Assembly: GCA_002436105.1 (NCBI GenBank)
Contig: DIXU01000001.1
Location: 265,500 to 329,499, forward strand
Origin: Candidatus Aminicenantes bacterium UBA6072
Lineage (GTDB): Bacteria > Acidobacteriota > Aminicenantia > UBA2199
DNA length: 64,000 bases
Direction: 5' to 3'
The notes beneath the pieces are model-generated. The model made no database searches. It was not told where the DNA came from and worked only from the letters and a program-made list of their open reading frames with translations. Positions 44,718 through 63,497 of this stretch are shown here, in pieces. The position numbers were made by a program, and so were the translations under genes. Position 1 is the stretch's first letter. Every line of letters starts with the position of its first letter.

Positions 44718-44737
44718 ATCACATTTTTCACTATTGA
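44718..44737 (+). promoter_or_regulatory. 20-nt motif ATCACATTTTTCACTATTGA (copy 1) upstream of the sigma-54 activator gene
   Basis: Exact 20/20 match to 63478-63497. It contains a TTGA -35-like element. A cattatatt -10-like element lies downstream. Confidence 0.5.
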
Positions 44738-44816
44738 TTCGCCAAGCCATCATCATTATATTCCAAGCTTGAATTGACTTTTTCGCAGTGCCCGCCTTTG
44801 GCCAAGGAGTCAAGCT

Positions 44817-47800
44817 TTGCCGCAGCGCTTCACCGTCAAGGACCGCCAGGCGTTCGATCTCTGGCAGAAAGAAGAACTCGCTCTCGTCACCGTTCCCAGC
44901 ACCCCCGAAAACCTGGAGCGCGTCCACACCATTTTCGGCTTCCAATCCAACCTGCTGCAGAACATCGTGGCGTTCACTCCCGGCACTTTCCAGACCAGCG
45001 TTCTGACGCAGCCATTCATCCCCTGCGCCCCCGAGGCCCTGTCCCGGTTGCCGCCGCCGGCGGTCTGCGCCGCCCGGAGACGCGCCCTGGCCCTTCTCCA
45101 TGCCGCCAGGGAATACCGCCTGGATTTCATCGATTTTTCCCGCTGTCAGGTCCTGCCCACGGGTGGGCTGCGTTTTGCATGGCGGCTTGAGCCGCAAGCC
45201 CCGCCGTCTTCCGCCTCCGTCGATGCGCTCTTCCACGGCAACCACCAGGAGGCGGCGACGGAATTCGGCGCTGCCCCGCCGCAGGGAGCGGACTTCCTGT
45301 GCCGCCGCGAGGACTTCGCCTGCCATCGGCTCCTGGCGCGCTCGCCGCGCGACCCGGGTGCCGGCGCCAACGCCCGGATCCGGATCCATACCAAGTTTCC
45401 CTGGCAGGAAGCGGTTGCCCGCGACAACCTGTTCCACAACCTGAATGACGCCGAGACCCTGCTGCTGAACGTCGACTTGGAGGACACGACCCTGGGCCGG
45501 AGGCTGGCGGCGCTCTGCGCCCTCGAAGATGCCGCCGCGGAGAACCCGGCCGCGCTGATCCGCGAATTCCGCTTGTTCTTGAAGAAATCGGTCTTCCGCG
45601 AATCGGTCCTCATCGTCCGCAACCTGGCGCGCAGGGAGGACGACCGCCTGCTGCGCTTCCTGTTCGCTGCGGAGGATATCCCCGGACTGACGGTCGTCCT
45701 CTTCGGCGATGCCACGCCCTGCGGGTGCGACCTGGAGTTCAACGAGGATCCGCAGAACCTGATGGCCGGGCGATCCCTGCCGCACCCCCCGCAGGCGCGG
45801 CCTCCCGAGCCGGACGAAACCGAGAGGCGGCTCCTGGCCAGCATCGCCGCCGATCGCCCGGCCGAACTGGAAAGCTGCCTCCTCGAGCTGGCCCGGCGAT
45901 GCCCCGGATGGGGGATTTCCGACCCCGCCGCCGAAGTGCTCTGCCGCCACTTGGAACAGGCGGCTCCCGCTGGCCAGGCCCTTGCCTGCGCGGTCGATGT
46001 CCTGATCCGGGGCAATTGCCTGGAACTGGCCGACAGGGTCCTGGCCACGGTCAAGGGGCAGGCACCGCCCTGGGCCCGCCTGAAGCAGGCCCATCTGGCC
46101 ATGCGCCGCCGGCAATACGGGGAACTGGGAAAGCTGCTGGCCGGGATGACGCGGCCGGGCGCAAACGGCCGCGACGAGTGGCTGTACCTGAACTTCATCT
46201 ACCACGAGAAGCTGTCCCGGAAGGATCGGGCCGACGAATATGCCGAAAAGATCCGCTCCCCCTATTACCGCAACCTGTCGCTCATCCAGCTGAGCGACCG
46301 CAGCATCTACAACCGCGAGTTTGTCAGGGCCAGGACCCAGCTGGCCGGCGTCCTGGATTATTTCTCAGCCGGGCGCGGCACGCGCGAGGAGATCGCGGCC
46401 CGCAGCCAGATGGCCAAGCTGCTGCGCGAAGAAGGCGATCTCAAGGAGGCGGAGATTCTGTACAAGACCATCTATGTCCAGGCCGAGGCCGAGGGCCTGC
46501 CCCTGAGCTCGGCCGGCGCTGCCGTGGACCTGGGCAACCTGTACGTCGAGGCCGACGACGATTTCCAGGCGGAGTGCTGGTACCGCAAGGCCAGCCGTCT
46601 GTATGCCGGTGAGAGGAGCAGGGACGGCCAGATGCTGGTGAACGCCAACCTGGTCAACGTCCTGCTGGCCAAGGGCGACTGGCTGCAGGCCGACAAGCTG
46701 CTGCGCGACATCCGGGCCTGGGATGAGGAAAAAAAGCTGCTCGCCTCCAGCGCCATCGACTACTTGAACTGGGCCGGGCTGGAAACCCTGCGCCAGCATG
46801 ACGAAAAGGCGCTGGGGCTGGTCAAGCATGCCGAAGCCATATTTCGCGATCGCGGCAACCGCAAAGGCCTCGGCGAATGCGCGTTTCTGCGCGCCCGCAT
46901 CACGGGGGAACCCGGCAGCAATCCCGAGGCGGCGGGCGAACGCTGGCTCAGCCACGACCAGCAGACCGTCTGCTCGCTGCTGCGCCTGCCGGCTCCCGCA
47001 GGCGGCGGCGCCAGGGAAGCGGAGATGCTGCACCGCCTGGATTCCATCGCCTCCAGGAAGATGCGCTTCGAGGCGCTGCGCCTGCTGCTGAAAAAACACC
47101 GCCGCGGCGAGTGGCTCGATCGATTCATGAAGATGGCCTGGGACCTCTCGCCCCGGGGGAAGAACTATTTCTTTTTCGAGTACTGGCACATGTTCTTTGA
47201 ACTTGCCGGCGAGGCCCTGCCGGCGGCCCGGCGCGAGGAATTCCTCGCCATGCATGATTTCTTCACCCTCAACCAGCGCAGCCTCTCACCCAAGCTGAAC
47301 CGCTGGCGCCAGGCATGCGAGGATAGCGAAAAAAGCCTGAGGTTGTTCGACGATGCGCGCCTGGTCGAGCAGCACCGGTTATGGCGCCTGCCGGCCGATT
47401 TCTTCAACAGCTTCTGCCACGAGATCGGCAAGGCGGTCCCGGTCGACTGGCTGGTCATGGACGTTCACGAAAAGAAGCGCCCGCTATTCCGCTTCGCCAG
47501 CAGCAACATGTTCCCCGAGCTCGGGGACGAGATGCTGCGCCGCGCCCGCGGTTCGTCGCCGAACCGGAACCATGACCGCCAGGAAGTGCAGCGCATCTAC
47601 CGCAGCCCGGAAAGGATCTTTTACCCGTTTGCCAGCACCCAGCTGCTGCGCTGGCCCATCGACGGGGACATCCTCGCCTGCCTGGCCATCGGATCCCATG
47701 ACGGCGCCCTGCGCTTCCAGGACCTGGGCGAGCGCTGCCGCGAGACATTCAGGACCTACGCCCAGCTGTTCCGCAGCTTCCTGCAGAACGAGTACCGCAT

Positions 47801-63369: not shown

Positions 63370-63477
63370 CCGCACCGCCCATGTTCCGCGGCAGCAACGG
63401 GACCGGCCTGGCCCTCAGGGAAGGCGGTCTCGAGCGCAGGACCATGGCTCGACAATATCTCTGCAGTGAAGAAACAG

Positions 63478-63497
63478 ATCACATTTTTCACTATTGA
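63478..63497 (+). promoter_or_regulatory. 20-nt motif ATCACATTTTTCACTATTGA (copy 2) upstream of a lipoprotein gene
   Basis: Exact match to 44718-44737. ttgaac / taagaat -35/-10-like elements follow. Confidence 0.5.

Follow-up and report, generated by a model that had tools for sequence, protein, structure and literature searches.

A promoter-associated 20-mer in Candidatus Aminicenantes as the probable core of a lineage-specific operator

The 20-mer and the promoter of the activator gene

The window analysed here, a 64,000-nt stretch of Candidatus Aminicenantes bacterium UBA6072 (contig DIXU01000001.1, positions 265,500 to 329,499), contains the AT-rich 20-mer ATCACATTTTTCACTATTGA in two exact copies on the + strand, at 44718-44737 (copy 1) and 63478-63497 (copy 2). 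Copy 1 lies 80 nt upstream of the TTG start (44817) of a sigma-54 activator gene and copy 2 lies 224 nt upstream of the ATG (63721) of a lipoprotein gene, which agrees with the distances of about 80-240 bp given in an earlier note on this DNA. That note had also regarded the recurrence as no product of chance. Its view is supported by the absence of a third match with up to three mismatches on either strand of the window, and by dinucleotide-preserving shuffles of the window, none of which (0/100) produced any match. If the repeat-dense first 10 kb are left out, the 20-mer is the longest exact repeat of the window, followed by GC-rich coding words of 17-19 nt. The GC content of the window is 62.6%, a minor correction to the 65% reported earlier. 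Alignment of the flanks of copies 1 and 2, a check suggested in the earlier note, revealed no further similarity beyond the 20 nt.

Copy 1 is part of a slightly longer unit, AATATCACATTTTTCACTATTGA (44715-44737, + strand), located at approximately -54 to -32 of the predicted sigma-70-type promoter of the activator gene, with the exact 20-mer at approximately -51 to -32. This promoter, TTGATT-17-TATATT (44734-44762, + strand), has its two hexamers within the 16-18 nt expected of its type and scores 9/12 in the promoter scan, which is just at the threshold; its -35 hexamer overlaps the last 4 nt of the unit. The -10 hexamer is followed by about 45 nt, the sequence AAGGAG, a further 7 nt and the TTG start codon at 44817. 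The gene (44817-48704, + strand) encodes a 1295-aa TPR/MalT-like protein with sigma-54 AAA+ activator and HTH_8 domains according to Pfam, and two ABC permease genes follow it in the operon.

A scan of a genome collection of species representatives with the 20-mer returned two matches. One is a true orthologue in Candidatus Aminicenantes bacterium UBA2199 (L002, 6160-6179), where the layout of TPR gene, intergenic region and activator gene is orthologous to that of the window; the other, in a Bathyarchaeota contig, lies inside a dense stretch and was taken as a chance match. In UBA2199 the 20-mer is 100% identical within a region of 86% identity over 261 nt. Substitutions there are found in the upstream flank and the spacer and have left the 20-mer, the -35 and the -10 untouched. 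A more distant relative (L141), whose activator N-terminus is 54% identical, retains the unit as AATATCACATTTTTCcCTATTG with one mismatch, followed by TTGTGT-17-TATAGT. In the three-way alignment of these loci 24 of the 25 nt of the unit are invariant and a TATAnT -10 is conserved at +17, while most of the other intergenic DNA has diverged. We interpret this conservation of copy 1 against diverged flanks as a clear phylogenetic footprint.

The activator locus also keeps its synteny in three distant relatives, in which orientation and number of the units differ. L142 and L144 have two reversed units, ATATCACAAAAT(T/C)CC, before the activator gene; the one nearer to the gene stops 4 nt short of TTGACA-17-TATTTG. 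L143 has one reversed and one forward unit, placed head to head before TTGAAA. The two units of these distant relatives are 50-60 nt apart. The core that is invariant across the relatives consists of ATATCACA, an A/T tract and TC(A/C)C, and the consensus of the whole unit, asymmetric and about 22-25 bp long, reads AATATCACA-WWWTT-C[A/C]C-TATTG. The unit is 70% A+T with a central T5 tract, and its C/G positions (TCAC...C.C) do not vary. In the same three assemblies (ENA ERZ250395xx) the gene calls for the activator and the ClpB-like protein are broken into several short pieces, more likely a sign of frameshift-rich assemblies than of genuine pseudogenes.

The methyltransferase relic at copy 2 and further instances

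Copy 2, with the exact 20-mer, belongs to the unit CAGATCACATTTTTCACTATTGA (63475-63497, + strand) and has a different history. The unit is part of a relic promoter, TTGAAC-17-TACGAT (63494-63522, + strand), homologous to the promoter of a class I methyltransferase gene that is found beyond the end of the window on the DNA of this same genome (L003). In blastn comparisons a match of 47-53 nt within 63472-63524 is 81% identical to the methyltransferase promoter in L003 (12940-12986) and 86% identical to that in L009 (768-818). Immediately downstream, two coding fragments of a methyltransferase pseudogene (63527-63661, + strand) were recognised by blastn. The first (63527-63638) matches codons 54-90 with 91% identity to L003 13201-13312, and the second (63630-63661) matches codons ~136-146 with 88% identity. 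The first fragment translates to AGPEDAAFTLNGMPFAQVRYPHKQGDIGRLFWWFPGS, which aligns with residues 54-90 of the methyltransferase with several replacements. The 5' untranslated region and the first 53 codons are absent. Because promoter and codons both match the methyltransferase and the start codon is missing, copy 2 is the promoter of an internally deleted, start-less methyltransferase pseudogene relic.

A separate promoter, TTGATT-17-TACATT (63670-63698, + strand), belongs to the lipoprotein gene and is conserved in L004 (2535-2589) and L009 (1-89); L004 keeps this promoter yet lacks copy 2. The gene itself encodes a 152-aa lipoprotein, and its 5' part (63721-64000, + strand) runs off the window, the whole being covered by L003 12266-12724. 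The earlier assignment of copy 2 as a promoter element of the lipoprotein gene consequently does not hold, since the copy belongs to a decayed methyltransferase duplicate of about 190 nt. The annotation of the DNA before the lipoprotein gene is corrected to a methyltransferase pseudogene relic that lies in the variable segment next to the tRNA. The -35/-10 pairs that the earlier note had seen after both copies stand for copy 1, whereas the pair of copy 2, with 8/12, is below the scan threshold. The 157-nt stretch 3' of copy 2 does not fold better than its shuffles (z = -1.3). In a relative (L135) S21, tRNA and methyltransferase genes are arranged likewise, and the lipoprotein gene is missing.

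The window lies within the metagenome contig ENA ERZ27315036 k141_9610, which is 458.7 kb long. A third copy of the unit, ATCACATTTTTCACTATT (18/18), occurs on L003 at 12946-12963, equivalent to window positions 64401-64418, in the promoter of the live methyltransferase gene (L003 13042-14157; start equivalent to window position 64497) and 0.9 kb past copy 2. It is followed by TTTAAA-17-TATTTT. Copies 1 and 3 are separated from their start codons by only 77-80 nt. Similarity between copy 1 and copies 2 and 3 ends at 20-22 nt. In orthologous methyltransferase promoters the unit keeps its register with one mismatch (L009) or three mismatches (L004; L137, methyltransferase 72% identical).

An independent instance was found in a metagenome contig (L075), where a DUF2891 gene is followed by GGCAATATCACATTTTTCACTATTGATT-17-TAAGAT and a BNR_2 lipoprotein gene. 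The contig is identical to copy 1 in 27 of 28 nt and has no further similarity to it. L075 was the only informative locus among the matches listed in the metagenome scan with ATCACATTTTTCACYATT, which were swamped by chance matches in AT-rich contigs: the matches in L074, L112, L056 and L118 lie inside open frames, and those in L098 and L106 lack promoter geometry. A viral scan gave five AT-rich matches, likewise judged to be chance. The TTGnnn-17-(-10) geometry of the copy 1 promoter recurs in L002, L141 and L075, and the 17-nt register with a TAnnnT -10 is found in 8 of the 10 instances tabulated. In AT-rich stretches of the window the background rate of a -10-like hexamer at this fixed offset is 2.3%, yet all three independent promoter types have one (3/3).

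No other strong site was detected when a position weight matrix was run over 176 kb of lineage DNA (~95 kb from this genome and ~80 kb from relatives), and the unit thus appears to be a specific small-regulon signal rather than a general promoter feature. Two weaker candidates were not convincing and may be chance matches: AATACATTTTTCGCCATC at 61261-61278, upstream of the Peptidase_S74 gene (5/18 mismatches, matrix score 18), and CTTTCATTTTTCACTGTA at L003 14937-14954, where CATTTTTCACT lies in the spacer of a strong TTGACT-18-TATAAT promoter. The latter promoter precedes a 192-aa open reading frame heading a DRTGG/HATPase/[FeFe]-hydrogenase-like cluster.

The interval between copies 1 and 2 continues, after the activator operon, with a ClpB-like gene on the opposite strand and with genes for a Ser/Thr kinase, an acyl-CoA dehydrogenase and an aromatic amino-acid lyase, and further on with small genes, S21, tRNA-Pro, tRNA-Arg and a Peptidase_S74 tail-fibre-like gene. 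The block is housekeeping-like and syntenic in relatives. Strain variation is seen in the segment 61097-63665 (+ strand) after tRNA-Arg, which holds the Peptidase_S74 gene (61456-63369) and the methyltransferase relic; in L004 and L005 (lipoprotein 78% identical) the distance from the end of tRNA-Arg to the lipoprotein promoter is only 348 nt. Within the Peptidase_S74 gene, positions 62142-62549 comprise six copies of a 51-nt (17-codon) repeat with 63-71% identity, consistent with a repetitive fibre or beta-helix domain.

A putative operator at the -35 region and the alternatives

The 20-mer is probably the consensus form of a lineage-specific, asymmetric operator, fused to the -35 of a few sigma-70-type promoters and bound by one sequence-specific protein. 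The unit spans approximately -54 to -32, the TTG of the -35 comes from its last bases, and a -10-like hexamer follows exactly 17 nt on in three unrelated promoters, namely those of the activator, methyltransferase and BNR lipoprotein (metagenome contig) genes. Its footprint extends over three genomes at the activator locus (24/25 nt) and over the methyltransferase orthologues with 0-3 mismatches, and it recurs before non-homologous genes, of three types only. The suggestion of a shared regulatory site in the earlier note is borne out in so far as the motif overlaps the -35, is kept in orthologous promoters as their flanks diverge and recurs before unrelated genes. One DNA-binding protein would accordingly recognise the unit and control a small regulon. 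Known class II activator sites overlap the -35 in the same way. Judged from the promoter sequences, activation is the most likely mode, preferred because the -35 hexamers are weak: the bound protein would sit beside or over the -35 in a class II-like manner and recruit RNA polymerase. Repression by occlusion of the -35 is a close second. The identity of the two window copies then has two causes, in that both promoters carry the consensus site and that copy 2 is also a paralogue by descent of the methyltransferase promoter of copy 3.

Several observations weigh against a common operator. The unit has no dyad symmetry and contains an internal TCAC/TC(A/C)C direct repeat with an unusual 9-bp period, and for these reasons it fits no standard dimer geometry. 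The second half-site varies in the methyltransferase lineage (CCTC, CCCC), and before the methyltransferase genes of L135 and L136 (58-60% protein identity) the unit is absent. The methyltransferase and BNR loci have no gene for a candidate regulator beside them. All promoter assignments are consensus matches, and that of copy 1 alone reaches the scan threshold. That the unit is unchanged in the relic of copy 2 is only weak evidence of selection: the divergence around it is 9-19%, at which about 3-13% of 22-nt runs of this kind should stay intact by chance, as estimated from the blastn identities.

It is conceivable, if rather unlikely, that the binding protein is the TPR/sigma-54 activator itself, and that the unit is an autoregulatory operator through which its Fis-type HTH_8 domain acts on its own sigma-70 promoter and on a few others. 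NtrC likewise binds its own sigma-70 promoter at glnAp1/glnL. The activator gene is the one locus that carries the unit in every relative examined, from 100% down to ~44% protein identity. Autoregulation is a reasonable specific guess because the conserved neighbourhood encodes no DNA-binding protein other than the activator and because the activator's HTH_8 segment TAE(K/M)LGISRMALF is invariant in the four orthologues compared, like the invariant ATATCACA core. The conservation of the HTH is, however, partly generic to the family, and the asymmetry of the unit is at odds with the dyad-symmetric sites bound by the HTH dimers of known activators. Furthermore, no sigma-54 promoter (TGGCAC-N5-TTGCW, up to two mismatches) was found downstream of any copy. 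The rejection of the unit as a sigma-54 upstream activating sequence, for which a -24/-12 promoter would be expected some 70-150 bp downstream, follows the same lines, with no such promoter near any copy at that threshold; matches to this pattern in the whole window number 22 against 30 expected, which is not above chance.

The other half of the earlier suggestion, "UP element or operator", fares less well. An A/T-rich promoter extension contacted by the C-terminal domains of RNA polymerase alpha, and requiring no dedicated regulator, would agree with the location of the unit (-40 to -55, with -51 to -36 as the fitting part), with its A/T richness and central T5 tract, and with the fact that in the lineage of the window it is always joined to a -35/-10 pair. 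UP elements, which occupy the -40 to -60 region in a fixed orientation to the core promoter, however, tolerate wide variation, whereas the C/G positions of the unit are invariant over a large evolutionary distance; in addition, it is found at no more than a handful of promoters in 176 kb, and in distant relatives it is reversed or duplicated. We prefer a protein operator because orientation and copy number vary, the G/C positions do not and the unit is rare, and consider a plain UP element quite improbable.

Identity by descent without any function, in which the window copies are alike through duplication and gene conversion, has in its favour that copy 2 demonstrably lies in a duplicated, decaying segment and that the 18.7-kb interval holds no obviously co-regulated functions. 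Copy 1, however, shares just 20-22 nt with copies 2 and 3 and is invariant in orthologous loci while adjacent bases change, and its 28-nt block is found again in another metagenome (L075), at a locus unrelated to it. The footprints have already largely ruled out this very unlikely reading. Extremely unlikely is a mobile-element end or an att-type direct repeat at the borders of an 18.8-kb island. The sharp borders of the exact direct repeats do resemble att cores, and the interval contains a tRNA pair and a phage-like Peptidase_S74 gene. Both the att-site and the insertion sequence (IS) end fail because no integrase, transposase or recombinase is encoded between or beside the copies (Pfam of the open reading frames) and because the block is syntenic in relatives. 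Moreover, copy 1 keeps its place in genomes that differ in what lies downstream, terminal inverted repeats are absent, and the variable segment is confined to 61097-63665 and starts at the end of tRNA-Arg, not at the motif. A terminal repeat of an IS or a miniature inverted-repeat transposable element (MITE) was rejected for copy 1 on the same grounds, as its similarity stops at 20-22 nt with neither an inverted partner nor a transposase. The earlier note had named the end of a longer repeated element as one outcome that would speak against a regulatory site. This applies in part to copies 2 and 3, which are related by segmental duplication, and does not apply to copy 1; an IS or MITE is not involved.

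Other known sites and elements were compared by inspection or search and rejected. For a CRP/FNR-type class II site (TGTGA-N6-TCACA or TTGAT-N4-ATCAA), inspection detected only the right half-site GATCACATTT, and the left half at N6 is absent in all copies. Copy 1 meets 7 of the 9 specified positions of the IHF consensus (WATCAANNNNTTR), judged by inspection as no fit, and the consensus sequences of Fur, Rex, CodY, the DnaA box, LexA and the pho box do not fit either. As for an RNA element, Rfam reports only four tRNAs at the gathering threshold and, with E relaxed to 10, no credible match near copy 1 or copy 2.

The architecture of the putative operator has parallels in other bacteria. The marbox of MarA/SoxS/Rob is an asymmetric site of ~20 bp, bound by monomeric AraC/XylS proteins with two HTH motifs. 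The unit resembles it in its length of ~20 bp, its asymmetry and its two short conserved blocks about one helical turn apart with an A/T tract between them. It also recalls the rule of forward class II and backward class I marboxes, as it overlaps the -35 in one orientation and lies reversed just upstream of the -35 in distant relatives. In contrast to the marbox, the unit misses the consensus AYnGCACnnWnnRYYAAAY (by inspection), no AraC-family gene is linked to it, and its conservation (24/25 nt) is far higher. With the tandem boxes of OmpR/PhoB-type regulators (pho box), which border the -35 or take its place, it shares a direct repeat, TCAC...TC[A/C]C, with A/T-rich spacing adjoining a weak -35; its period of 9 bp differs from the 10-11 bp of those boxes, its second repeat is variable in the methyltransferase lineage, and no response regulator is linked.

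Putative mobile promoters have been defined by at least 50 nt at 80% identity or more before non-homologous coding sequences (Matus-Garcia et al. 2012, PMC3488235). Like these, the unit forms part of a near-identical promoter before non-homologous genes (copy 1 and L075, 27/28 nt including the -35). The matches between copies 1 and 2 and between copy 1 and L075 are, however, only 20-28 nt long and fall short of that definition, and the match between copies 2 and 3 has a homologous downstream coding sequence, which excludes it from that pipeline (PMC3488235). A bolder version of the operator reading combines these aspects. The unit would be the operator of a lineage-specific master regulator above the sigma-54 cascade, which in all Aminicenantes examined would control the giant TPR/STAND-like enhancer-binding protein, and a module of ~28 nt (operator plus -35) would have been copied between the activator, methyltransferase and BNR lipoprotein genes as a very short "portable promoter" below the size described for mobile promoters. 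We regard this version as doubtful.

A literature search for the 20-mer and for promoters or regulons of Aminicenantes found nothing relevant, and we know of no cultured, genetically tractable representative of this lineage. The unit is ordinary bacterial gene regulation rather than an element of a new kind, and is of value mainly as a way into the regulation of an uncultured phylum-level lineage. It is rich in information, with ~24 conserved bp and a link to a sigma-54 activator gene that is itself conserved, and provides a handle on Aminicenantes regulation, usable for genome-wide scans of the regulon and as bait to find the regulator.

Other features of the window

The divergent intergenic region between the ClpB-like and Ser/Thr kinase genes contains a perfect 16-nt palindrome, TGAAATTGCAATTTCA (53820-53835), which is a candidate operator of another regulator. 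The best sigma-54-like match of the window, CGGCACAAACCTTGCA with one mismatch (59991-60006, + strand), is located in a short gap between two minus-strand genes; as such matches are no commoner than chance in the window, it may have no significance.

Within the first 10 kb, long intergenic regions at 1506-2148, 3964-4470, 5544-5942 and 9449-9696 are made of several short-repeat families. These include arrays of the 7-nt motif (GTTCCAY)n at 1632-1774 (20 copies), 4006-4057 and, inverted, 5807-5844, together with ACTATCACTACC, GACACTG-type and GGAATTTGG-type families. Repeat segments of ~500 nt recur both directly (1600-2113 and 3978-4370) and inverted (5556-5870), and flank genes for a radical-SAM/SPASM-PqqD protein, an ABC exporter and peptidases (M50-like, S46, M14). 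Translated from the - strand, the 7-nt array gives WNVEHGT/WNMERGT heptads in all three frames.

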